Both the position numbers and the translations under genes were made by a program. From Bacteroidota bacterium (GTDB lineage Bacteria > Bacteroidota > Ignavibacteria > UBA10030 > CAVZMI01): DNA of 64,000 nucleotides. The stretch lies in NCBI GenBank assembly GCA_050011775.1, contig JBEKIL010000003.1, positions 230,853 through 294,852 on the forward strand. Reading direction: 5' to 3'. The notes below the pieces were generated by a model. The model did no database searches. It was not told the DNA's origin and was given only the letters and a program-made list of their open reading frames with translations. Below are positions 752 through 60,500 of this stretch, in pieces; position 1 is the first letter of the stretch; each line of letters starts with the position of its first letter.

Positions 752-1872
752 ATGACCTTCATCTCTGTTTCATTCTCGATTCCTACCCTCCGGCGATCGG
801 TGGGGCAGAGACCGCTCTACAAAACATTTGCGAAGGACTCGCGCAGCGGAATTTTGATGTTACTGTAATCACCGCCTGGTTTGGTGGAAATGAACCGGTT
901 ATAGAGAAGAGCGAAGGTCTTACCGTCGTCCGTCTCAGGATTCCTCGACTCCTTCGCCGATTCTGGTTCGTTCAGCAGGCAATTCCCGCCATTCTCAGAT
1001 ATGCACGCAATTCTGATATCGTGGTTGGCAGCACTTACGGTGGTGTGCTCCCGGCTTTCCTTGGTTCTATTCTTCTGAAAAAAAAACGTGTGATGATGGT
1101 GCATGAAGTAATGAGGCACCGATGGTTCCGCTTTGAAAAAAATCCGCTGAAAGCCTTTTTTTATTATTTAACCGAGAAAATTCTCATACGGCTTCCGTTT
1201 CAGAGAGTAGTTGCTGTATCGGAATATACGCGGAATGAATTATTGCACATGGGTATGAATGATGAGGCTATCGATGTCATATACCATGGAATGCCAGACG
1301 GTGGAGCGAGACCTATTAGAAATCGCGATGAGGTTCGTACATCGCTTGGATTCGGAAAAGGCGATTTTCTCTACCTTGCCTTTGGCCGCTTGGGCGTTAC
1401 GAAGGGCTTTCAGTATCTTGCTCGTGCAATACCGGAGATAATACGACAAGTGCCTCAAGCCCGATTTTTATTGATTTTTTTTGACTATGATCGGCGGATC
1501 CGGCGTGAAATAGGGGAGGCTCTGGTAAAAGTCACATCGAACTCATACAAGCTATTTGATTCTGTCCCGCGTGAATTGTTAATTGATTATATCCATGCAG
1601 CAGATTGTGTGGTGATACCGTCGCTTTCAGAGGGATTTGGTTTTGCAGCGCTTGAAGCGTGCGCGGCAGGTACACCGCTCGTTGCGACAAAAGCCGGCGC
1701 TCTACCTGAGGTTGTGTACGGTCGCCATGTACTTGTTGAACCAGCTTCGGTCGAACAGCTTTCGGAAGGCTGCCGTCGGGTGTTCGAAGGCAGGACTTTG
1801 TATTCCGAACCGAAAGATTTTCGTTGGGAAACGTCGATTGAGAAATGGGAGATAATGTTTCGATCATTGTAA
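748..1872 (+). CDS. glycosyltransferase family 4 (retaining GT-B)
   Basis: C-terminal GT4 signature 'EGFGFAALEACAAGTPLVATKAGALPEVV'. Start ATG 748 forms an ATGA overlap with the upstream permease stop; the listed ORF start 733 is GTG. Confidence 0.8.
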   Translation: MNDLHLCFILDSYPPAIGGAETALQNICEGLAQRNFDVTVITAWFGGNEPVIEKSEGLTVVRLRIPRLLRRFWFVQQAIPAILRYARNSDIVVGSTYGGVLPAFLGSILLKKKRVMMVHEVMRHRWFRFEKNPLKAFFYYLTEKILIRLPFQRVVAVSEYTRNELLHMGMNDEAIDVIYHGMPDGGARPIRNRDEVRTSLGFGKGDFLYLAFGRLGVTKGFQYLARAIPEIIRQVPQARFLLIFFDYDRRIRREIGEALVKVTSNSYKLFDSVPRELLIDYIHAADCVVIPSLSEGFGFAALEACAAGTPLVATKAGALPEVVYGRHVLVEPASVEQLSEGCRRVFEGRTLYSEPKDFRWETSIEKWEIMFRSL

Positions 1873-1905
1873 CAAGACGGAAGATATATCATGATACAAA
1901 ATACA

Positions 1906-1988
1906 ATGCTGAGGAACAGGAAAAGGTAGAGGAAAAGTTTATCCCGAGCGAGTGAACGTAGTGAACGAGTCGAGGGGGTAAAGGGAAG
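1906..1988. repeat. purine-rich intergenic motif copies (AGGTAGAGG family), + orientation
   Basis: 'GGAAAAGGTAGAGGAAAAG' (1918-1937) and 'GGGGGTAAAGGGAAG' (1974-1988). Confidence 0.5.
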
Positions 1989-2345
1989 ATGTATAAATCT
2001 TTTAAAGAAATGCCGGTTTGGAAAGAGGCAATGTCGATTGCAGAGGAAGTGTTCCAGATTACAGAAGGACTTCCTAAGAAAGAAGATTATGGATTAACCT
2101 CGCAAATCCGAAGATCCACCTTGAGTATCTCCGCCAATATAGCAGAAGCATATGGGCGTAAACACACTCTTGATAAAAGAAAATTTTATTATACAGCCGG
2201 AGGGTCAACGACAGAAACACAAAACCACTTGGAATACGGATTGCGTGTTGGTTATTTTACTCGAATTCAAGTCGATGATTTTGATAAACGTTTAAATCAA
2301 ATATACAATGATCTCAATAAAATTATTGTGACAATAAAACCATAG
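1989..2345 (+). CDS. four-helix-bundle protein (23S rRNA intervening-sequence protein family, TIGR02436-like), copy 1
   Basis: 118 aa with '[59 protein letters not shown]'. Strong SD 'GGGGGTAAAGGGAAG' upstream. Paralog at 3873. Confidence 0.8.
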   Translation: MYKSFKEMPVWKEAMSIAEEVFQITEGLPKKEDYGLTSQIRRSTLSISANIAEAYGRKHTLDKRKFYYTAGGSTTETQNHLEYGLRVGYFTRIQVDDFDKRLNQIYNDLNKIIVTIKP

Positions 2346-2386
2346 CCTAAACCAAAACTTTTTTAACCTTAACCTTAACCTTTTCA

Positions 2387-2923
2387 ATGCCACCGAAACA
2401 GCGCTCTTTCGTCCTATGGTTCACAGGACTTCCCAGCTCGGGGAAGACTACGCTGGCTGACTCTGTCTATCGGTGGTTGAAGAGATACGGCTATAAGGTT
2501 GAGCGACTCGACGGCGATTCGATCCGTAAGGTATTTCCTCAAACCGGTTTTGACAAGAAATCACGTAATGAACATATCCGGAGAGTCGGATATATTGCCT
2601 CGATTCTTGAGCGAAACGGGATTACTGTCATCGCATCGTTTGTATCTCCTTATCGTGAGTCGAGAGATTTTGTCCGGGAGATCTGTAAACATTTTATCGA
2701 AGTCCATGTTGTCGCTCCAAACGAAGTCTGTGAGAAACGAGACGTGAAAGGATTATATCACCGGGCACGCAGCGGCGAAATCACGAATTTTACGGGCGTG
2801 AACGATCCTTTTGAAGAACCGCTCAAACCCGAATTGGTGGTGAGAACCGACACGAAATCGAAGAGAGCTTGTGTAAGAAAAATCACCGGATATCTCAGAC
2901 AACGTTATAAAATAAAACCTTAA
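2387..2923 (+). CDS. cysC: adenylyl-sulfate (APS) kinase
   Basis: P-loop 'FTGLPSSGKTTLA', 'LDGDSIRK' motif, ~180 aa, which is the typical size. Confidence 0.9.
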   Translation: MPPKQRSFVLWFTGLPSSGKTTLADSVYRWLKRYGYKVERLDGDSIRKVFPQTGFDKKSRNEHIRRVGYIASILERNGITVIASFVSPYRESRDFVREICKHFIEVHVVAPNEVCEKRDVKGLYHRARSGEITNFTGVNDPFEEPLKPELVVRTDTKSKRACVRKITGYLRQRYKIKP

Positions 2924-2949
2924 CCTTGATCTTTACCTCTACCTTTCCC
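2918..2949. repeat. pyrimidine-rich intergenic motif copy (CCTCTACCT, reverse orientation of AGGTAGAGG)
   Basis: 'CCTTAACCTTGATCTTTACCTCTACCTTTCCC' directly before cysD. A related (AACCTT)x3 tract sits at 2365-2382 before cysC. Confidence 0.5.
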
Positions 2950-2955
2950 TGACAC

Positions 2956-3837
2956 ATGAGCCATTTAGACAGATTAGAAAGCATTTCAATCTATATCCTT
3001 CGTGAAGCTTATGCAACGTTTCACAACCTCGGTATGCTGTGGTCGATTGGTAAAGATAGCACGGTTCTCCTCTGGTTGGTCCGGAAAGCGTTTTTCGGAC
3101 ATGTACCGTTTACATTGATTCATATTGATACCAGTTTCAAAATTCCAGAGATGATCCGATACCGCGATAAACTTGTTGAAGAACTCGGATTAAATCTGAT
3201 TTTTGGAATCAACGAAGAAGCGTTGAGAAAAAAACAAACGTTCCCCGACGGTCATGTAGACCACCTTGCATGCTGTAAAATCCTGAAGACCGACGCTCTC
3301 ATCAATACAATTAATGGTAACTGGACGCGATATCGCTTTAACCATACAACAAAAAGGTACGAACCAGAACATCATGGCGAGTCGTTCGATGGAATCATAG
3401 CCGGAGCACGGGCCGACGAAGAGGGCTCCCGATCGAAAGAGCGCTATTTTTCGGCACGCGATGAAAAAAGCCAGTGGGATATCGCCAGCCAGCCGCCTGA
3501 ATTCTGGAATTTTTATAAAACCGACTTTACCCCGGGGACACATGTCCGCATCCATCCGCTTCTTGATTGGACAGAACTGAACATCTGGGAATATATCAAA
3601 CGTGAAAATATCCCAACGGTATCGTTGTATTATAATAAAGGGGATGGGAAAAGATATCGTTCGCTCGGTTGTTATCCATGCACATTCCCGATCGACTCCG
3701 ACTCCAGAACAGTCGATGAGATCATCGAAGAACTTAAAAGTGGAAAGCTGAAAAACGTCGCTGAGAGAAGCGGGAGAGCTCAGGATAAGGAAGATCAGGG
3801 AGGTTTGGAAAGTTTGCGGAGAGACGGTTATATGTGA
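2956..3837 (+). CDS. cysD: sulfate adenylyltransferase subunit 2 (PAPS reductase-like fold)
   Basis: '[19 protein letters not shown]...HIDT...[18 protein letters not shown]', '[21 protein letters not shown]', 'LGCYPCT' align with CysD. Carries a ~25-aa insertion relative to the E. coli enzyme. Confidence 0.85.
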
Positions 3838-3872
3838 GGAAAAGGAAGAGGAAAAGGTTAAGGAGAGAAAAT

Positions 3873-4229
3873 ATGTTCAGATCTTTTAAGGAAATGCCGG
3901 TTTGGCAGGAGGCGATGTCGATTGCGGAAGAAATATTCCGGATCACCGAAACACTTCCGAAGAAAGAAGATTATGGTTTAACTTCTCAACTTCGACGAGC
4001 AGCCTCGAGTATTTCTGCAAATATAGCGGAAGCCTATGGCCGCAAACATTCTTTGGATAAGAAAAATTTTTATTATATAGCTCGAAGCTCTTCAACAGAG
4101 ACGCAAAGTCATCTTGAATATGGAATGCGGGTGGGATATTTTGAGAAGGAGCAAATCGATGTTCTTGACTCTCGTCTGGACCAACTATATAATGATATAA
4201 ATAAAATTATAATAACATTAAGATCATAG
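3873..4229 (+). CDS. four-helix-bundle protein (23S rRNA IVS protein family), copy 2
   Basis: '[60 protein letters not shown]', about 70% identical to copy 1. The listed ORF start 3834 gives an unlikely basic leader; ATG 3873 aligns with copy 1. Confidence 0.8.
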
Positions 4230-4230
4230 T

Positions 4231-4256
4231 CTCTACCTTTACCTATACCTTTACCT
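4231..4256. repeat. pyrimidine-rich intergenic motif copy (CTCTACCTTTACCT x2)
   Basis: 'CTCTACCTTTACCTATACCTTTACCT' directly before the cysN GTG start. The purine-rich mirror 'GAGGAAAAGGAAGAGGAAAAGGTTAAGGAGAG' lies at 3836-3867. Confidence 0.5.
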
Positions 4257-4261
4257 GTATT

Positions 4262-6067
4262 GTGTCTGATAGCCATCTAAATATCATCGTCGCCGGCCAT
4301 GTCGATCATGGAAAGAGCACAATAATCGGCCGTCTTCTCGCTGATACCGGCTCTTTACCTGATGGGAAGCTCGAGCAGGTGAAGGCCTTGTGCGAGCGCA
4401 ACTCTAAGCCGTTCGAATATGCATTTCTGATCGATGCTCTTAAAGATGAGCGTTCGCAGGGCATTACCATCGATGCCGCGCGCGTGTTTTTCAAGACTGA
4501 AAAAAGGCATTACATTATTATCGACGCGCCGGGACATATCGAATTTTTAAAAAATATGGTGACCGGGGCATCGCGGGCCGGGGCAGCAATACTGGTGATT
4601 GATGCTTCGGTAGGCGTTCAGGAAAATTCACGTGGGCACAGCTATTTACTTTCATTGCTGGGGATACGTCAGATTGCTGTCGTTATTAATAAAATGGACA
4701 TCGCCGGATACCGGAAAGAGGTGTTCGATAAACATGTGAAAGAGTTTTCGCAATTCCTTGAAACGATAGGAATTTGCGCTGTGAATTTCATCCCGGTCAG
4801 CGGCTGCAGGGGAGATAACATAGCAGCGAGAAGTGCCGCGATGAAATGGTACACAGGGGCGACAGTGCTTGAGACTCTTGATACATTCGAGGAATCAAAA
4901 ACTCCGCCGGATCTTCCGTTCAGGTTCCCGGTTCAGGATGTTTATAAGTTTACGAAATATAAAGACACCCGCCGGATTATCGCCGGCACGGTTTCTTCAG
5001 GTTCAATCCGTCCGGATGACGAAATAGTCTTTTATCCTTCGGGGAAGAGGAGCAGAGTAGCGACCATCGAGGAATTCAATGCTACTCCGCCTCAGCTCGC
5101 CTGCACAGATTCGGCAACCGGTTTCACTCTCAAGGAACAAATCTATGTCACACGCGGTGAAATAGCTGCAAAGGTTGGAGAACCGCCTCCACAGATTTCG
5201 TCACGACTGCGCGTCAGTCTCTTCTGGATGGCAAGACGCCCGCTTTCCGTCGGGAAACAATATATTTTGAAATGCGGAACGGCAAGGACTCATATGCAAA
5301 TAGAAGAACTGATAAAAGTGATCGATGCTTCCGATCTTCATACATTGTCCGTTCAGAACATTGTTGAGCGGCACGAGGTTGCCGAGTGTGTTATGAAATT
5401 GGAGAAGGCGATTGCGTTTGATCGTGTAGGCGATATAGCAGGGACGGGGCGGTTCGTCGTCGTAGATGAGTATGAGATAGCCGGAGGTGGTATAATTCTC
5501 GATACACTTGAGGATCAACAAGCTTTTGTACGCGAGAAAGTTCTCACCCGTAATATCAAGTGGGAAAAAAGTACTATCCCGTCAGAAGTTCGCGCCGAGC
5601 GATTTAAACAGAAACCCGGTTTGATTCTTATAACGGGTAAAAAGGACAGCGGTAAAAAGCCGCTCGCACGGGCGCTGGAGAAAAAATTGCTCGATGGTGG
5701 ATATCATGCATATTTCCTCGGGATCGGGAATATATTATACGGAGTCGATGCAGATATCAAAGGAATTCATGATGACAGGTACGAGCATATCCGGAGGCTG
5801 GCTGAAGTCTCGAACATTCTTCTCGACACCGGTATAATACTTATTGTCACTGCCATTGAGCTTCAAGTAGACGAAATCGATCTGATTCGAATGACGTGTA
5901 ATGAATATGGAATAATGACAATCTGGGTCGGTGAAAGTGGAACTCCCGTAGTAGACTTTGATATCACAGTTTCAAGCAGCACGCCGATCGATGCAGCTGC
6001 TGAAAAAATAATCCATGATATTCAAAAGAGGTTATTCAGCGCAGGGAAAGGAAATTACAATAGCTGA
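4262..6067 (+). CDS. cysN: sulfate adenylyltransferase subunit 1 (GTPase) fused to a degenerate APS-kinase-like C-terminal domain (CysNC-type)
   Basis: GTG start. G1 motif '[19 protein letters not shown]', 'DAPGH', 'NKMD' GTPase motifs. C-terminal ~160 aa resembles APS kinase ('[27 protein letters not shown]') but the P-loop S/T and the DGD motif are not conserved ('GIGN'). Confidence 0.85.
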
Positions 6068-6081
6068 ATGCAATTGAAAGG

Positions 6082-6888
6082 ATGTACGTATTGAGAATCG
6101 TGGCTATAATGACAATTAGAAATGAAGAACTCTATCTCCCGAGAGTGTTAGCGAATCTATATAATCAGGGAATTGAGGTTTGCCTGGTCGACAATGGATC
6201 AACGGATTCGAGTCCGGAGATCGCCCGCTCTTTTCTGGAAAAGGGGGTAGCGAGAATTGAACAATTGCCTTATAAGGGTTTTTATGATTTATTTTCAATC
6301 TTAGAAAATGAAAGAAAATTGGTAAAAGAGATCGATGCGGATTGGTTCATACATCACGATGCAGATGAAATCCGTGAAGCTCCTATGCCGCCTTATAAAA
6401 CTCTTTATGAAGGAATTCAGGATGTCGACCGGATGGGCTATAATGCGATTAACTTTGATGAATTCGTTTTTTTGCCGACGAGTGATGAAGAGCATTACGA
6501 AGGGACTGATTATATTAAAGAGATGCGTTATTATTATTTATTTGAACCCGGTCCATTACGGCGTGTAAATGCATGGAAGAATTTAAAGAAACCGATCGAC
6601 TTGAAAAGCTGGGGAGGGCATCAGGTTAATTTTACTGACCGGAGGATATTTCCAGGCAATTTTATTATGCGACATTATATTGCTCTAAGTAAAGTTCATA
6701 TTATTAAAAAATATGGAGAAAGGGTATATTCTAAATATGAGGTAAACGAATTGGGTTGGCATAAGTATCGTATCGGATTTCGGACCGATCGTTTGGTTTT
6801 CCCAAAAAAGGAAGATATTTGTTGTACTGACACGAATCATTGGGATAGATCGAAACCAAGGCATCAACATTTATTTCTGAAGCAGTAA
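6082..6888 (+). CDS. putative glycosyltransferase family 2 protein (Glyco_tranf_2_4-like)
   Basis: 'IVAIMTIRNEELYLPRVLANLYNQGIEVCLVDNGSTDSSPEIA' fits the GT2_4 pattern (RNE...DNgStD); 'HHDADE' acidic motif. Confidence 0.5.
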   Translation: MYVLRIVAIMTIRNEELYLPRVLANLYNQGIEVCLVDNGSTDSSPEIARSFLEKGVARIEQLPYKGFYDLFSILENERKLVKEIDADWFIHHDADEIREAPMPPYKTLYEGIQDVDRMGYNAINFDEFVFLPTSDEEHYEGTDYIKEMRYYYLFEPGPLRRVNAWKNLKKPIDLKSWGGHQVNFTDRRIFPGNFIMRHYIALSKVHIIKKYGERVYSKYEVNELGWHKYRIGFRTDRLVFPKKEDICCTDTNHWDRSKPRHQHLFLKQ

Positions 6889-7000: not shown

Positions 7001-7894
7001 ATGAGCCAATGGTTAAGTAACGGGCCTGTAGTAATCGGCGGTGTAGGGGGCAGCGGTACCAGAGTCATCGCGGAGATATTACGCGAGGTCGGATTCTATC
7101 TGGGAGCCGATTTAAACTTGGCGTTGGATAATCTTTGGTTTACCCTGTTGTTGAAACGGCCCAGGTTGTTTCATAAAAAAAGCGCTTTGAAAGTCGAGGT
7201 ATGCCGGGGTTTTTCAATCCTGGAGAAAATAATGAAAGGCGAGTACGGATTATCATGGCGTGAGTATAAATTTTTAATCTCTGCGATCAGCGAAATGATG
7301 GTTTTTGGCCATGACTATCTTCGGGCTGGCCAAGGCTTCTGGCCTTTGAAGCGTGTAATATCCATGTTATCAAAGAATAAATTGGCCGTGAGGGATTATA
7401 TCGGTTGGGGTTGGAAAGAACCGAATACACATATTTTCATTGAGTATTTGGCTGAGTATTTCAGCAAATTAAAATATATCCATGTCATCAGACATGGTCT
7501 GGATATGGCTTATCACAATAATCAATCCCAGTTATACAATTGGGGAAATCTTTTTGGAGTAGAAAAGCCAAAGACTTTGAAAGATCTTCCAGTTGCATCT
7601 CTTGAATATTGGATTAAAGCGAATCAAAAAGCCATACGGCTGGGTAAAAATATTTTGAAGGAGCGATTTTTGTTAATTAACTTTGACCAGCTATGTGAAA
7701 TCCCTAAAATGGAGGTAGAAAAAATTTTTTCTTTTCTGGAATTTCAAACCAACGATATTGATTTTGTTGACAGAATATGCCTGATTCCTCGAAAACCATC
7801 ATCGATCGGACGATATAAAAATCACGATTTAGCATGCTTTCCCGAACGAAGTCTTGATGAAGTAAGGAAACTTGGATTTAATATTGAAGAATAG
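7001..7894 (+). CDS. putative sulfotransferase (Sulfotransfer_3-like)
   Basis: 5'-PSB-like P-loop 'PVVIGGVGGSGTRVIAEIL' and 3'-PB-like 'WGWKEPNTHIFIEYL'. The same pair of motifs occurs in the paralog at 16833. Confidence 0.55.
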   Translation: MSQWLSNGPVVIGGVGGSGTRVIAEILREVGFYLGADLNLALDNLWFTLLLKRPRLFHKKSALKVEVCRGFSILEKIMKGEYGLSWREYKFLISAISEMMVFGHDYLRAGQGFWPLKRVISMLSKNKLAVRDYIGWGWKEPNTHIFIEYLAEYFSKLKYIHVIRHGLDMAYHNNQSQLYNWGNLFGVEKPKTLKDLPVASLEYWIKANQKAIRLGKNILKERFLLINFDQLCEIPKMEVEKIFSFLEFQTNDIDFVDRICLIPRKPSSIGRYKNHDLACFPERSLDEVRKLGFNIEE

Positions 7895-20040: not shown

Positions 20041-20349
20041 TTTATGAAAGCAAAAAAGAATTATCAGGTGAATGCCTAAAAACATCGGTTCCGGAGATGC
20101 TGGCCAAGATTGTGGAAAATCATCTGACAACACTACGCGGCGGATCGAAATAGAAGGAAAAAGATAAAAAAGAAATTGCATATAATTGCCTAAATTTGTA
20201 TACATTCGTATTATTCGACCCGCACTGAGCGGATTGTTGGGCGAAGTTGAAGGAAAATCGTGCCAGTCGAAGTGTTATCTGTTTTCTTTTTTTCTTACAA
20301 ACTGGTTATATTTATAAAGAGGAATTCATCCGAAGGAGGTCATATATAA

Positions 20350-21414
20350 ATGTTTGTCAACGCACGATTCTTAACGAAGAGGATAACAGGCCTCGAACGA
20401 TACGCTATCGGTGTTTCTCTCCGTTTAAAAACTTTGTCACCCGAATCGGAATTTATCGCGCCACATGATATTATACACAAGGAACATGCGCGTACCTTGG
20501 GTGTGAAGACTGTGGGATACTCGACCGGTCATGTATGGGAACAAACCGAACTTCCCGTGTATCTCACCACCAAAAAAACGCCGCTCCTGCTGGGTTTGAC
20601 CAATACAGGCCCGCTGACATATACAAATCAAGTCGTGGTCATCCATGATCTTGCATTTCTACGTGAACCGGGATGGTTCTCAAAGAAGGCTGCGTTATCG
20701 TTTAAATATCTTGTCTCGGGTGTGGCAAAAATTGCACGGCGTATTATCACGAACAGCGAATTTACAAAAAAAGAAGTGGTTGAACTTCTTGGAGTCGCGC
20801 CTGAAAAAATATCTGTCGCATACCCTGCAGTCCCTGAAAATATTCTTCGCCTGGCTGCGGTACCACATGAGAATAAATACGGCGATTATATACTCACACT
20901 CTCCTCTCTGGATCCGCGGAAAAATCTGAAGAGTTTGATTAAAGCATACCGTCAGCTTGAGCTACGGGATGTAAAATTGGTCGTTTCAGGGGGGGAAAAT
21001 CAGGATGTATTCGGGAAACATGCATTTGATCTGCGGGCTATAACAAAGGAAGATGCAAATATTCAATTTACAGGATATTTGAGTGATGATCAGATCGTGG
21101 GTCTCTATCAAAATGCCCGCCTGTTTGTCTATCCATCGCTCTATGAAGGATTCGGCTTTCCGCCGCTCGAAGCAATGGCATGTGGTTGTCCTGTAGTTGC
21201 CTCAGAATCAAGTTCACTCCATGAAGCATTGGGATCAGCAGCACTCTATTCCGACACGCGGGATATCAACAGTCTGGCCGATACCATATCAAAAGCTTTG
21301 AACGAGCCGAAAACGGTACGTGCCGGCGCCCGGGCCGAACAGGTAAAGAAATTCTCCTGGGAGAAAACAGCGACAGCAATCCTGGATGCGGTGAAGATGA
21401 TCGAGAAGAGTTAA
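20350..21414 (+). CDS. glycosyltransferase family 4
   Basis: 'YPSLYEGFGFPPLEAMACGCPVVASESSSLHEALG'. SD GGAGG 7 nt upstream. Confidence 0.8.
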   Translation: MFVNARFLTKRITGLERYAIGVSLRLKTLSPESEFIAPHDIIHKEHARTLGVKTVGYSTGHVWEQTELPVYLTTKKTPLLLGLTNTGPLTYTNQVVVIHDLAFLREPGWFSKKAALSFKYLVSGVAKIARRIITNSEFTKKEVVELLGVAPEKISVAYPAVPENILRLAAVPHENKYGDYILTLSSLDPRKNLKSLIKAYRQLELRDVKLVVSGGENQDVFGKHAFDLRAITKEDANIQFTGYLSDDQIVGLYQNARLFVYPSLYEGFGFPPLEAMACGCPVVASESSSLHEALGSAALYSDTRDINSLADTISKALNEPKTVRAGARAEQVKKFSWEKTATAILDAVKMIEKS

Positions 21415-21467
21415 TCTCGAAGGGAATAAATCAGTCAGCATATTCTAAGGAAAAGGAAAAATTAAAT

Positions 21468-21556
21468 CCTTCGACTCGCACTACCTTCCTTCGACTCGTA
21501 CTACCTTCGGTAGTACTCGCTCAGGATAAGTCGGTAGTGCTTGCTCAGGACAAGAA
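21468..21556. repeat. compound direct plus inverted repeat hairpin element upstream of nadE
   Basis: 'CCTTCGACTCGCACTACC' (21468-21485) and 'CCTTCGACTCGTACTACC' (21488-21505), followed by 'GGTAGTACTCGCTCAGGA' and 'GGTAGTGCTTGCTCAGGA'. GCACTACC pairs with GGTAGTGC and GTACTACC pairs with GGTAGTAC. Confidence 0.7.
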
Positions 21557-21707
21557 TTAAAAAGTAAGAAGTATTCATTCGCCAGGGAATGTCATATATT
21601 TTTTAAAGAACGACTAAACACTTTTTCTTTTTCCTTTTTCCTTTTTACTTCATCAACAGCCATTGAGAAGTTGTAGCTACAGCCATTGAAAAGGGAAATA
21701 TCAAACG

Positions 21708-23360
21708 ATGCGCGTCGGACTATTACAACTGAATTTCGTCGTTGGTGATCTTGAAGGAAATGCAGAAAAGATTGCCAGCGCGGTGAAAAATACTCTCGGG
21801 GGGAAGGCCGACCTGTACGTTACCTCGGAGCTTTCGCTTCTGGGCTATCCCCCGCGCGACTTGTTGTTACAGAAAAGCTTTATCGAGCGCGGACTGCGGG
21901 TTCTGGAAGAACTTGCACGTAACGTGGCCAATGGACCGCCGGTACTGGTGGGGACGGCAATTCCCAATACCAGTCTGGCAGGCCGGCCTCTTTTCAACAG
22001 CGCCGTTTTGCTGCATAAGGGAAGAGTGGGTGTGAGTTTTGCAAAAGCCCTTCTTCCTACTTATGATGTATTCGATGAGGATAGGTATTTCGAGCCGTCA
22101 CAATCACCCGGGATCCTCATTATGGAAAGATTACGAATCGGTGTAACGATCTGTGAAGACATCTGGAACGATAAAGATTTTATGTCGCACCAGCTGTATG
22201 TCAGCGATCCAGTTGAACAGATCATGGAAGCAGGTAACATCGATTTCTTTGTTAACCTTTCCGCCTCTCCCTTTACGGTCGGAAAACAATCTTTTCGTGA
22301 ATTGATGTTCTCCAGTATTGCAAAAAAATATAAGGTTCCGATCATTTATGTAAATCAGGTGGGTGGGAATGACGATCTCGTTTTTGATGGTCGAAGCTGC
22401 ATCTTCGATCGGGAAGGTGTGTTGATTACCCGGGCGAATTCATTTAAAGAGGATGTCATCATCGCCGATGTCACGAAACGTGGCAGGGTGGAAGAGGATG
22501 ATTTTACGCCCGAATCAGAAATCTGGCGGGCACTGGTTCTCGGGACCCGTGACTACGTCCATAAATGCGGATTCAAGAGCGTTCTGGTGGGATTATCGGG
22601 AGGGGTCGACTCGGCGTTAACAGCGGCTATAGCTGTTGAAGCTGTTGGAAAAGAAAATGTCCTCGGTGTTATGATGCCCTCCCCATATTCGAGTGGGGGA
22701 AGCATCGATGATGCGACCGAATTTACCCGACGGTTTGGGATTCGTACAATAACACTTCCGATTGTTTTAATCATGGGTGCGTACGCGACAACATTAAAGG
22801 AAGTATTCCGGGATTATCCGGAGGATGTCACGGAAGAAAATATTCAATCGCGAATCCGGGGAAATCTTCTGATGGCTCTTTCAAATAAGTTTGGTTCACT
22901 TCTTTTAACGACGGGAAATAAATCGGAGCTGGCAGTCGGGTATTGTACGATCTATGGCGACATGTCGGGCGGACTCGCCGTTATTGCCGATGTCCCCAAG
23001 ACAATGATCTATCGGATAGCCCGGTGGGTGAATCTGACTAAAGGACATCTGATCCCAGAAGAAATCATTAAGAAGCCGCCGTCGGCCGAGCTTCGGCCAA
23101 ACCAGACCGATCAGGATAGTCTGCCGCCTTATGATATTCTTGACGAGATTCTTCAACGCTTTATTGAATTACATCAAGGGTATGGAGAGATTATCAGAGC
23201 TGGATTCGATCCGGAGATTGTCAACAAAGTTCTTCATCTCGTTCGTATCGCAGAATTCAAACGAAGGCAGGCTGCCCCGGGATTGAAAGTCACAGATCAG
23301 GCGTTTGGTACCGGATGGCGGATTCCTATAGCGCGTGCCGATCATGAGAGGATTTTCTGA
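21708..23360 (+). CDS. nadE: glutamine-dependent NAD+ synthetase (nitrilase-like glutaminase domain plus NAD synthetase domain)
   Basis: Nitrilase triad context ('YVTSELSLLGY', 'KALLPTYDVFDE', 'IGVTICEDIW'); PP-loop 'LVGLSGGVDSALTAAIA'; 550 aa. Confidence 0.9.
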   Translation: MRVGLLQLNFVVGDLEGNAEKIASAVKNTLGGKADLYVTSELSLLGYPPRDLLLQKSFIERGLRVLEELARNVANGPPVLVGTAIPNTSLAGRPLFNSAVLLHKGRVGVSFAKALLPTYDVFDEDRYFEPSQSPGILIMERLRIGVTICEDIWNDKDFMSHQLYVSDPVEQIMEAGNIDFFVNLSASPFTVGKQSFRELMFSSIAKKYKVPIIYVNQVGGNDDLVFDGRSCIFDREGVLITRANSFKEDVIIADVTKRGRVEEDDFTPESEIWRALVLGTRDYVHKCGFKSVLVGLSGGVDSALTAAIAVEAVGKENVLGVMMPSPYSSGGSIDDATEFTRRFGIRTITLPIVLIMGAYATTLKEVFRDYPEDVTEENIQSRIRGNLLMALSNKFGSLLLTTGNKSELAVGYCTIYGDMSGGLAVIADVPKTMIYRIARWVNLTKGHLIPEEIIKKPPSAELRPNQTDQDSLPPYDILDEILQRFIELHQGYGEIIRAGFDPEIVNKVLHLVRIAEFKRRQAAPGLKVTDQAFGTGWRIPIARADHERIF

Positions 23361-41933: not shown

Positions 41934-44900
41934 ATGATCACGAAAGCCGGAAAAAATCTTGCCTATATTTATTCAACTCCCCGCTCTGGCTCGACATTGC
42001 TTGCGGCGATGCTCGGCGGTCACGATGACGTCTATGTCCCTCCCGAACCATGGTTTCTACTTCTGCTTCATTCTCTTCTCTCTTCCGATGATGCGATTGT
42101 TGCACATTATGACGAAAATCTGGCACGCCGCGCATTTCGGGAATTGTCTCCGGAGAATATCATCACAGAAGCCTCGCAAAACTATGCATTGACGGTATAT
42201 AATAGTCTGTTGGAGAAAAACAAAAAAAAATATTTTGTCGATAAAACTCCCCGATATTACCATGTCCTTGAATGGATCGATGCGCTATTCCCTGAAGCCA
42301 AAAAAATACTCTTAGTCCGAAATCCACTCGATGTCTTTGCATCATATAAAGATGTGTGGGGAATCGAAGTAGAGGAAATGATCGGTGAACAGCTCTCTCC
42401 ATTTTCATTCGATGCCACGATAGCATATTTCAGATTTCAGGATTTTTATAAGCGATCGCATACAAATATGATCCGGATTTCCTATGAGAATCTTGTGATT
42501 GATCCCCATACCGTGATGCACGGGGTATGCGGTTTTTTAGGATTGGCATTTAACGAGAGGATGATATCCTATGGAGAGAATAAAGAACTATTGACACGGT
42601 ACGCAAATTCCAGCATGGGCGATCGAAAGGTGCTTTCCGAAATAACTCCGCATCGAAAATCATGCGGAAAATGGAAAACAATCCTGACCCCCTTAGAAAC
42701 TCAGAAGATTGTGACGACGCTTGGGACAAGGATATTCGAAGAGAACGGTTATAAGACCGAATTACAGGAAGCTCTGTCATTTGCTTCGCTGCAATATGAG
42801 AAGGTCGACCGCGAAGGAAGAAAGGAAGAACTCTTTAAACAGTATCAGACCTATGTCGAGACGCGGCTTTCATCATCTGCAGCTCTTTCCAATGTGGCTC
42901 TCACAAGGAAGAATGAAGAGCTCTTAAAATATATAACTACAATAGAGAAGGATCGGCAGGATCGACTCGAGGCAATCCTACGTTATCAGGAAAAACTGGA
43001 TAACTCTCATAATGCAATTGAGCAAAAGGAAATACGAAATCAACAACTTCTTGAGGAATCACTCAGGATTCAGGATCAACTGGTAGACTCTCGTAATGCA
43101 ATTAAGCAAAAAGAAGTACGAATTCGACAACTTCTGGAGGAATCACGTGGGTTTCAGAATCAACTGGCAGACTCTCGTGATGCAATTGGGCAAAAAGAAA
43201 TACGAATTCAACAACTTATGGCGGGAACGTACGGGTTTCAACATCAACTGACGGAACTCCGGGATGTCATAGCACAAATCGAAAAAGACAGACAGGCCAG
43301 ACTCGATTCGATACTCTATTACCAAAAAGAACTGGCGGAAGTACAGCGGAGGAATCAGGAACTTATCGATACGATTTCTTCGATTGAAAACGACAGGCGG
43401 GCCAGACTTGAGTCGATACTCTATTACCAAACAGTATTGTCGGATTTACAACATCGGTACGATGTGATCGAAAAAGATCATGCAAATCTTTTGATGTTAG
43501 TCGAAACATTGAATGGTCATATTGCCGAACTCGGGACATTGGAAACATCGTTACGCCGGTTCATTGAGTTGTCGTTACGCAGCATCGGTCTCTATGAATT
43601 TATTTTACGCCACCGAAAAAAGCTTAACCGGGTTTTTCTGTTCGTATTGCACGCGGGGGCCGGATTAGCTTCTGTTATCCGCAAATTCCATCGCAAAAGG
43701 GAGCTTGGTGTAGTGAAAGCAGACACCGCTCCTTTACAAAAACAGACTCTTAAAGAAACATTAAACTCACCCGAGGTCAATGCTTATGTCAATTCACGGT
43801 TAATTCAGGGTGATCTGGAAGACAGTGTAATACACCATTTCCTCGATAATAATTCTTCGTTTTCATCCGTAATCTGTCTCATGCCGGACCCAAATGATCT
43901 TCAATTACTGATTTTTCTTAAAGAACTCGGGAAATCTGTATTTGTTCTTCATTCTCCATCCGAAAATTTAAGTCTCATTAAACCGAATATTTCTTTTACA
44001 GCATGCATCGCCGATGAATGGTTCATGAAATATGGACGGTTGGAACTTTCAAAATATGATGTTCTTTTCATAGGAAAGAATTGTTCAGGTTCGTATTTCC
44101 GACTATTAAAAAATTATGTATCACCTCGAACAGCGATAATTCTTCATAATACCAGTTTTTCGGAAGAGTTATTTTTACTTGAGGGTAGGATTAAAGTGAC
44201 AATCGGCAGCTTTGTTTCTCTGTCTCCTTGCTCCGATTCAAAGGTATTATTCAAGGTATGCGAAGAACGCCGAACAATCGATAATGCACAATGGCCGTGG
44301 AAGCAGTTCAAGTCTGAAATCCCATCGAACATGCCCTCCGGCAGGCCCTGGCCGAGAATATCGGTCGTTACGGCCACACTCAATCAGGGCGATTTCCTTG
44401 AAGAGACAATTCGCTCGGTGCTGCTGCAACGTTATCCGAACCTTGAGTACATTCTCCTCGATGGGGGTTCCACCGATACAACACCGGAGATTCTCAACCG
44501 GTATAAAAATGAGTTCGCAGTGTGTCTAAGTCAAAAGGATAAAGGTCAGGCCGATGCGTTGAACAGGGGTTTCAATCATGCAACCGGAGAAATTCTTGCA
44601 TGGCTGAATAGCGACGACCGATATCTTCCCAACACATTTCTTGATGTTGCGCTGGCATATGATTTGTATGCCTGTGATATGGTTGCAGGGGGATGTGCTC
44701 TTGTCAATGATAACGAAGCAATTCCCTGGAGTGTACATCACACTTTATTACCTCTGGGGGAAAAAGTCCGGCTTCCACTCGATAATCTTCTCGATATCGA
44801 TGGTTCCTGGCAAAAAGGCGATTTCTTTTATCAACCGGAGGTGTTCTGGAGCAGGAACATCTGGGAAAAATCCGGGAGACGAATTGATAGTACTCTCCAT

Positions 44901-59450: not shown

Positions 59451-60368
59451 ATGATCAGCATCGTCACTCCGTCATCCAACAGCGGGAAATATATTCAACA
59501 GGCGATCCGAAGCGTTCTTGAACAGGAAGGAATTAAGTTAGACTATATTATTGTCGACGATGGTTCCACAGATGAAACTCTCGATATTATACGCTCATTC
59601 GGAAATAGACTGCGCTACATCTCGGAACCAGATCGGGGACAGTCGGAAGCCATCAACAGGGGCATCAGGATGTCGTACGGAGATATTATCGGATGGCTTA
59701 ATGCAGACGATTACTATCACCCCGGAACGCTTCGATTTATTAATGATTATTTTGCGAAGAATCCGGAAGTGATGCTTTTATATGGCGACGGTACGTTGGT
59801 GAAAGAAGATGGAACGGTTATGAAACCATTTCCGACAGAGGAGTACTCCCTTGAGAGATTAGCGTATCGGTGCATTATATGTCAGCCGGCGGCGTTTTGG
59901 CGGCGGTCGCTATGGGAAAAAGTCGGACCATTGGATATCTCGCTTCATTATGCTATGGATCTCGATTTCTGGATCCGTGCAGGTAAAGCTCTTAAACGGC
60001 ATCCGGAGTGGCGGTTCGTTTATATTCCAAAAGTCTTTGCATATTCTCGAATGCATCGGCACACAAAAACAATGACCCAGCATCGGGAAGTTTTGCACGA
60101 AGTTGTCAGCGTAATGAAAAAGCATTTTGGCTATGTGTCTTTTCCCTGGGTATATGGAATCGAAGAGGTTCGCGATCCGCGATACGACGGGATCATCAAA
60201 AAAAGTCCGGTTTCCTTCTCTTTGATCGCAAGGAGCCTTATGAAATGGATATGGCAGAACAGGATGCGGCCCGATCACATTATTCGCTTTATCGGCATGG
60301 TCCTATTTTCGCCCCGAAAGAGCTGGCAGAAAATGAAGGAGAGAACGGGAGATGAAGAGATAGGTTAA
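59451..60368 (+). CDS. glycosyltransferase family 2
   Basis: 'MISIVTPSSNSGKYIQQAIRSVLEQEGIKLDYIIVDDGSTDETLDIIRSF', 'GWLNADDYY'. Confidence 0.8.
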   Translation: MISIVTPSSNSGKYIQQAIRSVLEQEGIKLDYIIVDDGSTDETLDIIRSFGNRLRYISEPDRGQSEAINRGIRMSYGDIIGWLNADDYYHPGTLRFINDYFAKNPEVMLLYGDGTLVKEDGTVMKPFPTEEYSLERLAYRCIICQPAAFWRRSLWEKVGPLDISLHYAMDLDFWIRAGKALKRHPEWRFVYIPKVFAYSRMHRHTKTMTQHREVLHEVVSVMKKHFGYVSFPWVYGIEEVRDPRYDGIIKKSPVSFSLIARSLMKWIWQNRMRPDHIIRFIGMVLFSPRKSWQKMKERTGDEEIG

Positions 60369-60382
60369 GGTAGAGGTAGAGG
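60362..60382. repeat. purine-rich intergenic motif copy (AGGTTAAGGTAGAGGTAGAGG)
   Basis: Same 9-mer AGGTAGAGG twice in tandem, about 40 kb from the other copies. Confidence 0.5.
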
Positions 60383-60500
60383 ATGAGATCAAGATTGAGA
60401 TTTTTTAGAGATGGTTGTACATAAGCAGCCGTACAGATATTATATAGATCTTTTATCGTTGCTCTGTCAATACATTTGTTCTGTTTGGAAATAATCAAAG

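Follow-up and report, generated by a model that had tools for sequence, protein, structure and literature searches.

Two genes for four-helix-bundle (4HB) proteins were found inserted in the spacers of a cysC-cysD-cysN operon (PAPS synthesis, sulfate activation) that is ordinary in other respects, each lying between a G-rich array and a C-rich array of short tandem repeats. By analogy, these elements, of which the cys spacers contain two copies, probably (though with considerable doubt) correspond in an operon to the ORF-bearing intervening sequence (IVS) of 23S rRNA. The window (the whole 64,000-nt stretch analysed) contained only these two 4HB genes. The cys/4HB region was flanked by GT4 (733-1872), GT2 (6082-6888) and sulfotransferase (7001-7894) genes, in a surrounding locus of glycosyltransferase/sulfotransferase genes. 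On the plus strand, 4HB-1 (1989-2345; 118 aa; PF05635 E 3.6e-31, TIGR02436 E 7e-31) was followed by cysC (APS kinase; 2387-2923; PF01583 E 1.6e-52), cysD (sulfate adenylyltransferase small subunit, PAPS_reduct-type; 2956-3837; PF01507 E 3.6e-40), 4HB-2 (3873-4229; 118 aa; PF05635 E 1.9e-34) and cysN fused to an APS-kinase-like C-terminal domain (4262-6067; PF00009, PF22594 and a partial PF01583 match); the three cys genes are host genes outside the elements. This gene set and order agreed with the sequence-only reading, as did the paralogy that it had put at ~70%, the two 4HB genes being 72-73% identical in protein and 77% at the DNA level. No rRNA match was present in 1700-4500, and both 4HB copies lay between protein-coding genes.

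The tracts quoted in the sequence-only reading were all located (purine at 1912-1937 and 3835-3866; pyrimidine at 2359-2385, 2918-2951 and 4230-4258) and consist of hexamers in tandem, with (AGGTNN)n ahead of each 4HB gene and (NNACCT)n behind it; TRF called period 6 at 2363-2382, 3837-3857, 4234-4256 and 60368-60382. The unit consists of a G-rich array of approximately 4-5 hexamers with the core AGGT, the 4HB ORF and the reverse-complement C-rich array; it lies in the same orientation as the host gene upstream of it, and no promoter belonging to it was obvious. In element 1 the G-rich upstream arm (1912-1937, plus strand; sequence reading and repeat comparison) had ~4.5 hexamers (GAGGAA CAGGAA AAGGTA GAGGAA AAG) and was 79% alike to that of element 2 over 28 nt. 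The leader from this arm to the 4HB-1 start codon (1938-1988, plus strand) carried a 48-nt insert (CGAGCGAGTGAACGTAGTGAACGAGTCGAGG) and the SD-like GAGGGGGTAAAGGGAAG; it was kept in a sister locus (L003) and missing in element 2. The C-rich downstream arm of element 1, (TTAACC)3.3 (2359-2385, plus strand; TRF period 6, 100% matches), stopped 1 nt short of the cysC start codon. In element 2 the G-rich arm (3835-3866, plus strand; TRF period 6) began on the cysD stop codon with ~5 hexamers (TGA GGAAAA GGAAGA GGAAAA GGTTAA GGAGAG), and the C-rich arm, (TACCTT)3.8 (4230-4258, plus strand; TRF period 6), stopped 3 nt short of the cysN start codon. The tracts are arms of the 4HB genes and not signals of the cys genes; those before cysC and cysN are the downstream arms of the preceding 4HB genes. 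Both 4HB genes had SD-like sequences (GAGGGGGTAAAGGGAAG-ATG and AAGGAGAGAAAAT-ATG) and the three cys starts had none, as was claimed earlier.

When up to 1 mismatch was allowed, the 9-mer AGGTAGAGG had 18 matches in the window against 5.6 +/- 2.6 expected, and 18 was reached in 0 of 100 shuffles. Since the tracts are tandem hexamers, this "9-mer" corresponds to one and a half repeat units. Nine matches were in 1900-4260 and two at 60368-60382, and the remaining 7 were at chance level; all 4 exact matches in the window were outside annotated coding regions. The motif is non-random and oriented by strand, as had been supposed, with the excess found only in the spacers concerned. Arrays without a 4HB gene were also observed on the plus strand. 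A solo C-rich array (CCTTAACCTT GATC TTTACCTCTACCTTTCCCTG; 2918-2951; sequence reading and repeat comparison), with no adjoining 4HB gene, overlapped the cysC stop codon and was 90% complementary to 1917-1937. The further motif copy anticipated near 60362 was present as a solo G-rich array at 60362-60402 (AGGTTA AGGTAG AGGTAG AGGATG AGATCA AGATTG AGATT), which began on the stop codon of ORF 59451-60368; neither a complementary array nor a 4HB gene was found downstream of it, and its second half resembled the upstream arm of the L083 4HB gene. Between a glycosyltransferase-like ORF (20350-21414) and ORF 21708-23360, an ORF-less arm pair (AAGGAAAAGGAAAAATTAAA ... CACTTTTTCTTTTTCCTTTTTCCTTTTTAC; 21447-21651) enclosed ~150 nt with a hairpin of its own. 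No 4HB remnant was detected in this pair, and its arms matched those of the second 4HB type of L003 (88% over 33 nt).

Both window proteins belong to PF05635 (108 and 118.5 bits, cut-off 33.8) and TIGR02436 (106.6 and 114.3 bits, cut-off 24). The closest solved homolog of 4HB-2 was XCC0516 (PDB 2gsc, 5 chains in the entry; E 3e-19), a homopentameric toroid (PMC4990558). A total of 831 homologs of 4HB-2 were retrieved at E <= 0.001, the closest being 65-87% identical and from several phyla, and a distant similarity to Avd of diversity-generating retroelements (DGR) was detected (PHROG 3206, E 1e-4). The dN/dS was 0.12 for 4HB-1 against 4HB-2 and 0.34 for 4HB-1 against its L003 ortholog, values that point to a functional 4HB protein under purifying selection.

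A survey of 83 4HB ORFs from 80 genome loci showed that the arms are a family-wide property; no published account of such an architecture was found in a literature search. The upstream 120 nt were scored against the reverse-complemented downstream 120 nt, with 300 non-adjacent ORFs as controls. Flank complementarity exceeded the control 95th percentile in 61/83 4HB ORFs and the 99th in 49/83, and the median score was 28 against 15 for control ORFs of the same loci; about a quarter of the 4HB genes lacked clear arms. The tandem period was 6 or 7, with ~3.8 units per side and a copy number of 2 to 9 that was weakly matched between sides (rho 0.30). The unit differed by 4HB subfamily, with more than 12 classes (AGGTAA, AGGTTA, GGGAGTC, GAGGTGA, TGGTAAT, CAGTGAT, GGCTGAA and others), and two 4HB genes with different units occurred in one locus in L017 and in L029. 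The units of both sides were concordant within 1 mismatch in 36/49 cases. G exceeded C in 57/63 upstream arrays and C exceeded G in 57/60 downstream arrays; the upstream neighbour was co-oriented in 77/82 cases (background 0.75, p 8e-6) at a median gap of 50 nt. Across phyla the AGGT core was kept in both arms and 2 spacer positions of the hexamer were free. The design of gene plus arms recurred in about 18 bacterial phyla and in unrelated operons (thiC-type, nucleotide-sugar epimerase, conjugation genes and others). Independent sets concurred, namely 4HB genes beside cysD (L083 and others) and 4HB genes on Nostoc, Calothrix and Trichormus plasmids, where heptamer (STRR-like) arrays flanked the gene in inverted orientation. 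A lack of the repeats at 4HB genes elsewhere would have spoken against the association first proposed; equivalent arms were found at other loci and in other phyla.

Among 80 metagenomic cysD relatives, cysC-cysD-cysN were usually contiguous with short spacers, and a 4HB gene was beside cysD in only 4/80. In L003 the host proteins were 94-97% identical to those of the window, while the slot after cysD was occupied by a 4HB gene from a distinct subfamily (23% identity), whose arms also differed. Because most relatives were contiguous and the L003 slot differed, the 4HB genes appear to have the character of insertions in the cys operon. The L003 counterpart of the 2918-2951 spacer contained an extra 4HB gene and a truncated cysD copy.

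The anatomy of a G-rich array, a 4HB ORF and a C-rich array inserted in operon spacers resembles the 23S rRNA IVS of Coxiella burnetii and Leptospira, in which complementary termini bound an insert with a PF05635 ORF (S23p). In Coxiella, S23p belongs to the same protein family and is directly preceded by tandem heptamers (GACAGAT) and an AG-rich SD-like tract (PMC4990558). In both systems the element has the look of a selfish insert, carried in a host RNA that is highly transcribed. The systems differ in that the host here is a protein-coding operon spacer and not an rRNA gene helix, the termini are imperfect hexamer arrays and not a 28-bp near-perfect stem, and the 4HB ORF is under purifying selection while decay has been reported for the Coxiella ORF. 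Termini able to close a stem were nevertheless present family-wide (61/83), with imperfect helices. On transcription of the operon, base pairing between the arms would give an imperfect long-range helix, with the 4HB ORF looped out and the end of the host gene before it drawn up to the beginning of the host gene behind it. By analogy with the 23S IVS, where RNase III cuts the terminal stem and the insert is removed from a host RNA that stays functional, the helix might be processed; RNase III excision of an IVS has been shown for Coxiella only (PMC4990558). SD-like sequence for the 4HB ORF is also provided by the G-rich arm, so that arm pairing would mask it and make 4HB translation depend on the stem being unfolded or processed.

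Predicted folds were partly in line with such a helix. In MFE and centroid structures, 1912-1937 paired with 2359-2385 and 3835-3866 with 4230-4258, the stem closing the ORF. However, whole-element fold energies were unexceptional (z -1.1 and -1.3); the cognate arm duplex of element 2 reached -25.4 kcal/mol and that of element 1 was no better than shuffles (z -0.7). The strongest duplexes in the window were non-cognate, enclosing cysD or 4HB-1 plus cysC: the 2918-2951 array gave -33.5 kcal/mol with arm 1 and -37.7 kcal/mol (z -5.9) with arm 2. As neither G-rich arm has a better partner than this 4HB-less array, one transcript could also pair in alternative ways, with cys genes enclosed. ORF-less pairs folded significantly (window 21440-21660, z -4.3, arms paired; L086, z -2.7). 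Arm helices had interruptions at intervals of 4-6 bp, hexamer positions 5-6 being unmatched, and thus fall short of an ideal RNase III substrate. No excess of G.U-compatible over A.C arm mismatches was observed (21 vs 30), so nothing pointed specifically to selection on RNA pairing; only a weak G excess was seen at hexamer position 6 of the upstream arm. Pairing alone does not require conservation of the AGGT core in both arms.

Core conservation and subfamily-specific units suggest that the 4HB protein or another factor reads the repeats. It is possible, though not likely, that the 4HB protein itself binds the repeats on RNA or DNA, with one repeat for each subunit of its ring, and in this way regulates its own gene or controls the flanking host genes; arm complementarity would then be secondary. 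This account is compatible with the IVS-counterpart reading and does not exclude it. In their core-plus-spacer layout the arrays resemble the sites of ring RNA binders such as TRAP, and Avd itself binds nucleic acid. The flanks are tandem arrays (~3.8 units each side) and not arbitrary complementary sequence, AGGT is fixed with 2 free spacer positions alike in both arms, the unit varies with protein subfamily, and the pentameric toroid of XCC0516 (PMC4990558) offers a ring. The distant relative Avd works together with the DGR reverse transcriptase (10.1101/2023.10.23.563531). However, covariation of unit and subfamily is equally explained by co-inheritance, copy number ranges from 2 to 9 and matches weakly between sides, and on a single RNA strand AGGU and its complement cannot both be read by one protein. 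A DGR itself was not indicated: PF05635 resembles Avd (PMC10053308), but the repeats here are short tandem arrays, and neither a reverse transcriptase nor a template/variable repeat pair occurred within +/-10 kb: the Pfam content of all called genes there included no RVT domain, and the only long direct repeat in 1800-4400 was the pair of 4HB paralogs.

A role of the arms at the DNA level is rather unlikely. On this view a mobile but non-autonomous cassette would use them as terminal inverted repeats or as substrates for recombination. The 4HB gene would be moved either by an enzyme acting in trans or through recombination (homologous or illegitimate) of one array with another, and ORF-less pairs would represent vacant landing pads or copies that have decayed. 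This would fit the sporadic presence in one operon type, the different 4HB types in one slot, the 65-87% identical proteins in different phyla, the symmetric mismatch spectrum of the arms, and the single core in both arms, as for a duplex-DNA site read in two orientations. The solo arms and ORF-less pairs of the window, one with arms of a sister-genome 4HB type, and the L003 duplication that took cysD fragments along with the element also agree with it. Nevertheless, no transposase, integrase or recombinase was consistently adjacent, and no target-site duplication was recognised at the window, L003 and cysD-relative junctions read. One 4HB protein was found on 13 contigs, always with the same neighbours and invariant arms, so that nothing suggested recent transposition. 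In nearly all cases the G-rich arm was upstream and a co-oriented gene preceded the element, neither of which would be needed by ends that act purely at the DNA level. Terminal inverted repeats as in MITEs are present, though as tandem arrays of variable length and not defined termini, and the window copies were only 77% identical. RAYT/REPIN systems likewise have a single gene flanked by inverted short repeats that also occur gene-less in other spacers. RAYT has the known DNA-cleaving fold of a Y1 transposase, and REPs form palindromic hairpins in place of the hexamer arrays seen here. The gene flanked here is a PF05635 gene and not an IS200/IS605-type Y1 transposase, and its protein has no recognisable catalytic domain.

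The proposal that 4HB genes and repeats delimit a transferable PAPS cassette, or that the cys genes are regulated by the pyrimidine tracts in an orientation-dependent way, is largely refuted and very improbable. Each operon spacer does consist of one array of 32-41 nt, the 4HB-less tract before cysD pairs best with the arm after cysD, and the cys genes have no SD sequences. By contrast, most of the 80 relatives had cysC-cysD-cysN without 4HB genes or such tracts, the recurring unit is arms plus 4HB gene, which enters unrelated operons, cysN lies outside the bracket, and slot content differs between sister genomes whose cys genes are 94-97% identical. What stood of the sequence-only interpretation was that the repeats do not occur at random, have a strand orientation and go with 4HB genes, and also, through the solo tract before cysD, the possibility of pairings around cys genes; the cassette and the cys signals did not stand.

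Like the STRR of heterocystous cyanobacteria, the window arrays are tandem, lie in intergenic operon spacers and can form hairpins, but their period is 6 nt where STRR units have 7; period 7 occurs in other 4HB subfamilies and in the cyanobacterial copies. The units here presumably differ from the three classical STRR consensus sequences. The arrays flank one gene family in about 18 phyla, the window itself being from a Bacteroidota/Ignavibacteriota-type MAG and not a heterocystous or filamentous cyanobacterium. Transcript stabilisation or translational coupling has been proposed for STRR (PMC2670836); the papers searched described STRR for cyanobacteria only and linked them to no gene. That the arrays are generic low-complexity intergenic filler, incidentally next to 4HB genes, is extremely improbable: ORF-less and solo arrays do occur in the window and relatives, and STRR-type repeats are common in filamentous-cyanobacterial intergenic regions (PMC2670836), but control ORFs away from 4HB genes had no arrays, the 9-mer was at chance level outside the elements of the window, and the two 4HB genes of one locus carried different units.

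At this locus an ordinary PAPS operon has been colonised by an element resembling both the intervening sequences (IVS) of 23S rRNA and the STRR repeats of cyanobacteria, present in two copies and as relics. Its genes encode, in order, a GT4 glycosyltransferase (733-1872), the 118-aa four-helix-bundle PF05635 protein 4HB-1 (1989-2345), the APS kinase CysC (2387-2923), the sulfate adenylyltransferase small subunit CysD, of PAPS_reduct type (2956-3837), another PF05635 protein, 4HB-2 (3873-4229), a CysN GTPase with a fused APS-kinase-like domain (4262-6067), a GT2 protein (6082-6888) and a sulfotransferase (7001-7894). Gene calls and domain matches bore out this content and order as given by the sequence-only reading, and the exact 4HB-2 protein in the same gene order was found on an ENA metagenome contig and a Logan contig. 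Judged from sequence, both window proteins are bona fide PF05635/TIGR02436 members and old paralogs under purifying selection, with 72-73% protein identity, a dS of about 1.4 and a dN/dS of 0.12. The surrounding 10 kb contained no mobile-element gene, reverse transcriptases included, PADLOC returned no defence-system match, and no Rfam family was matched over 1700-4500. The C-terminal APS-kinase-like domain of CysN (residues 454-554) aligned to just positions 4-105 of the 152-position profile, and a full-length, separate cysC (2387-2923) lies upstream; the fused domain may have degenerated or may serve in regulation.

The motif AGGTAGAGG, allowing at most one mismatch, had 18 matches in the window versus 5.6 expected, and none of 100 shuffles reached 18. 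Eleven of the 18 were in the cys operon spacers or at 60368-60382 and the remainder were at chance level; the observation made from the sequence alone was confirmed, with the excess confined to these places. The tracts were tandem hexamers, AGGTNN where purine-rich and NNACCT where pyrimidine-rich, with a TRF period of 6 at 2363-2382, 3837-3857, 4234-4256 and 60368-60382. Each 4HB gene had a G-rich array upstream and a C-rich, reverse-complementary array downstream, together called its arms (element 1, 1912-1937/2359-2385; element 2, 3835-3866/4230-4258). The four operon spacers (2346-2386, 2924-2955, 3838-3872 and 4230-4261) were 32-41 nt each and almost wholly one array, and host start codons lay 1-5 nt past the C-rich arrays, without an SD. 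A window-wide scan for inverted repeats was swamped by chance pairs and was uninformative for single loci; a family-wide statistic was needed.

A single search with 4HB-2 returned 831 relatives from several phyla, with up to 87% identity; cultivable carriers include Citrifermentans bemidjiense (Gbem_0596) and Nostoc punctiforme. Flanks were inspected at 80 genome loci encoding such relatives, from Ignavibacteriota, Bacteroidota, Desulfobacterota, Nitrospirota, Nitrospinota, Omnitrophota, Planctomycetota, Elusimicrobiota, KSB1, Kryptoniota, Fidelibacterota, Acidobacteriota, Chloroflexota, Gemmatimonadota and Actinomycetota. At almost every locus a tandem array preceded the 4HB start and its reverse complement followed the stop. 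The unit was AGGTAA/AGGTAG in the closest relatives of 4HB-2, AGGTTA/AGGTTG in relatives at 53-60% identity, and a heptamer in distant subfamilies (GGGAGTC, GAGGTGA, TGGTAAT, GATATTG, CAGTGAT or GGCTGAA); for each unit type, hexamer or heptamer, the downstream array complemented the upstream one. Two loci (L017 and L029) each held two 4HB genes of differing subfamilies, each with its own unit.

An HMM built from the matches identified 88 4HB ORFs in the 80 loci and the window, and the 83 with full flanks were scored by local alignment of the upstream 120 nt with the reverse-complemented downstream 120 nt. The median score was 28, versus 15 for 300 control ORFs from these loci, none of which adjoined an HMM-defined 4HB gene; the score exceeded the 95th percentile of the controls in 61 of the 83 and the 99th in 49. 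The arms had a tandem period of 6 or 7 and about 3.8 units per side; median distances were 21 nt from the upstream array to the start codon and 13.5 nt from the stop codon to the downstream array. Consensus units of the two sides were within one mismatch of each other in 36/49 elements, with more than 12 distinct concordant unit classes. Of 63 upstream arrays 57 were of the G-rich version, and of 60 downstream arrays 57 were of the C-rich one. A co-oriented upstream neighbour was present for 77 of 82 4HB genes (background 0.75, p 8e-6; median gap 50 nt); no significant orientation bias was observed for the downstream neighbour. Independent samples agreed, since 4HB genes beside cysD in metagenomic relatives and on plasmids of Nostoc punctiforme, Calothrix brevissima and Trichormus variabilis were also armed, the plasmid copies with the heptamers AGTCAGG/CCTGACT and GGGTGTA/TACACCC. 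The sequence-only reading had made the repeats at 4HB genes of other loci its test, and equivalent arms were present both among the 80 loci and in these samples. On sequence grounds, the repeats are assigned to the 4HB genes. The plasmid 4HB genes of Nostoc, Calothrix and Trichormus (L173-L178) lay directly 3' of genes for integrases, conjugation functions or hypothetical proteins; in Nostoc PCC 7120 an ISL3 transposase adjoins the gene, and there the upstream arm was absent.

The operon itself was only the host of the elements. In 80 metagenomic loci with close cysD relatives (70-85% identity), cysC-cysD-cysN were normally contiguous with short spacers, and a 4HB gene adjoined cysD in only four. 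The sequence-only reading was wrong as to a PAPS cassette or cys signals and right as to the link between the repeats and the 4HB genes. The closest genome locus, the sister locus L003 (labelled Ignavibacteriota), encoded host proteins 94-97% identical to those of the window and a 4HB-1 ortholog with 85% identity and a dN/dS of 0.34. However, its slot after cysD held a 4HB gene just 23% identical to 4HB-2 with differing arms (AAAAAGG-type), showing that within a conserved operon the slots change their content. The cysC-cysD spacer of L003 (its positions 4946-5540) contained, in order, a truncated cysD copy in which the first ~110 nt are joined directly to the final ~45 nt, another 4HB gene (5133-5480) of the same type as the post-cysD copy, and the C-rich arm of that gene; an intact cysD follows. 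The arrangement amounts to a tandem duplication, internally deleted, at the element; it took host sequence along and looks like unequal recombination rather than transposition. Recent mobility was not seen for protein P0046, which occurred on 13 contigs always with the same neighbours and identical arms, and no target-site duplications were recognisable at the elements because the array ends are fuzzy. A 48-nt insert, CGAGCGAGTGAACGTAGTGAACGAGTCGAGG (1938-1985), separating the upstream arm from the SD of 4HB-1, was kept in L003 and missing from element 2; it had a weak reverse-strand likeness (15 nt, 93%) to the interior of the repeat at 21467-21554.

Arrays were also found without an ORF. At 21447-21651, the complementary arrays AAGGAAAAGGAAAAATTAAA and CTTTTTCTTTTTCCTTTTTCCTTTTTAC enclosed two short tandem duplications (a 20-nt unit at 21467-21508 and a 24-nt unit at 21507-21554) with a hairpin of their own, and the region folded with paired arms (z -4.3). 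These arms matched those of the second 4HB type of L003 (88% over 33 nt), a type absent from the window. A purine-rich tract at 20147-20175 and a pyrimidine-rich tract at 20278-20296, ~100 nt apart in the spacer ahead of a glycosyltransferase-like ORF at 20350, are possibly another such pair, with a weak duplex (z -1.2). Solo arrays comprised a C-rich one before cysD (2918-2951) and a G-rich hexamer array (60362-60402) beginning on the stop codon of ORF 59451-60368; no partner array or 4HB gene was found for the latter, and its second half (GATGAGATCAAGATTGAGATT) resembled the upstream arm of a cysD-adjoining 4HB gene in a relative locus (L083). In one relative (L086), heptamer arrays directly 3' of the cysD stop codon made up a hairpin without an ORF (z -2.7). 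Neither tblastn nor HMM searches found 4HB remnants in 21447-21651, 2918-2951, 60362-60402 or 20100-20350.

The closest relative studied by experiment is the 23S rRNA IVS of Coxiella burnetii, which encodes S23p, a protein of the same family. Upstream of its ORF lie an SD-like tract rich in A and G and two or three tandem heptamers (GACAGAT), and its termini form a 28-bp stem that RNase III cleaves mid-stem (PMC4990558). The window elements had the same parts in the same order, and in RNAfold both the MFE and the centroid structure showed an arm-arm stem closing each 4HB ORF; by this analogy and modelling, an RNA-level model of the arms is favoured. In a polycistronic transcript the arms would pair and loop out the 4HB ORF, juxtaposing the ends of the host genes, and the helix would mask the SD-like G-rich arm and offer a potential RNase III site. 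A role in the transcript would agree with the strand asymmetry and with the requirement that the upstream gene be co-oriented. Whole-element folding was weak (z -1.1 and -1.3) and was kept out of the evidence, and the cognate arm duplex of element 1 was no better than shuffles. The strongest window duplexes were non-cognate, pairing the pre-cysD tract with the post-cysD arm (-37.7 kcal/mol) or with the arm before 4HB-1 (-33.5 kcal/mol), so several alternative pairings are possible in one transcript. No asymmetry of G.U versus A.C arm mismatches, a signature of RNA-level selection, was found (21 vs 30; 5 vs 9), and a weak excess of G at upstream hexamer position 6 was not decisive. In the hexamer class, all phyla shared a fixed A-G-G-T core in either arm while positions 5-6 floated uncompensated, which points to a sequence-specific reader (a protein, the ribosome or a DNA-binding factor) besides, or in place of, pairing. 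Binding of the arms by a putatively pentameric 4HB protein is a live alternative compatible with the RNA-level model; the closest solved homolog, XCC0516 (PDB 2gsc), is described as a homopentameric toroid (PMC4990558). Action of the arms at the DNA level is a further live alternative.

Compared with rRNA IVS, the window elements had the anatomy without the defining rRNA location. They were not components of a DGR, with no RT and no TR/VR pair, and their proteins were just distantly like Avd. The heptamer arrays around cyanobacterial 4HB copies were of the same kind as STRR, which the literature describes as 7-bp repeats that form hairpins in the operon spacers of filamentous cyanobacteria and have no known function (PMC2670836). 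Genes for 4HB proteins have been noticed between cmr2 and cmr3 in cas operons (PMC3936711), and also in rRNA insertions of CPR bacteria, in both cases without mention of flanking repeats. In the full-text literature searched, arms were described only in the Coxiella IVS paper, and nowhere were inverted arms of tandem repeats presented as general to the family; the family-wide architecture appears to be undescribed so far.

TIGR02436/PF05635 is a very common family of small uncharacterised bacterial proteins, recurrent odd passengers in operons. A 4HB gene within co-varying inverted arms is a design common to RNase III-processed rRNA IVS and STRR-type repeats, giving the family a concrete, testable anatomy that predicts processing sites within many operons and makes the arm repeats a candidate ligand for the 4HB protein. 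For annotation, purine or pyrimidine tracts ahead of host genes may be part of an adjoining insert. A speculative and rather unlikely extension is that PF05635 genes and inverted 6-7-nt arrays form one self-contained, horizontally spreading module, whose pentamer reads its own subfamily repeat and which settles, with its ORF-less derivatives, in transcribed operon spacers and structured-RNA helices. If true, one mechanism would cover ORF-bearing rRNA IVS, the STRR hairpins of cyanobacteria and the numerous Avd-like proteins that stand alone, all three long without explanation.

Two sigma-70-type -35/-10 pairs were observed 36 nt ahead of the 4HB stop codons, one at 4165-4193 (TTGACT-17-TATAAT, 11/12 near-consensus) pointing at cysN and one at 2281-2309 (TTGATA-17-TACAAT, 10/12) pointing at cysC. 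Among the 83 4HB ORFs, nine of ten such matches sat 36-66 nt ahead of the ORF end; they could be an outward promoter or a mere by-product of a conserved L-D...Y-N coding motif. A further tandem repeat, an 84-nt unit in about three copies at 42986-43250 (81-84% matches), was apparently unrelated to the 4HB elements.
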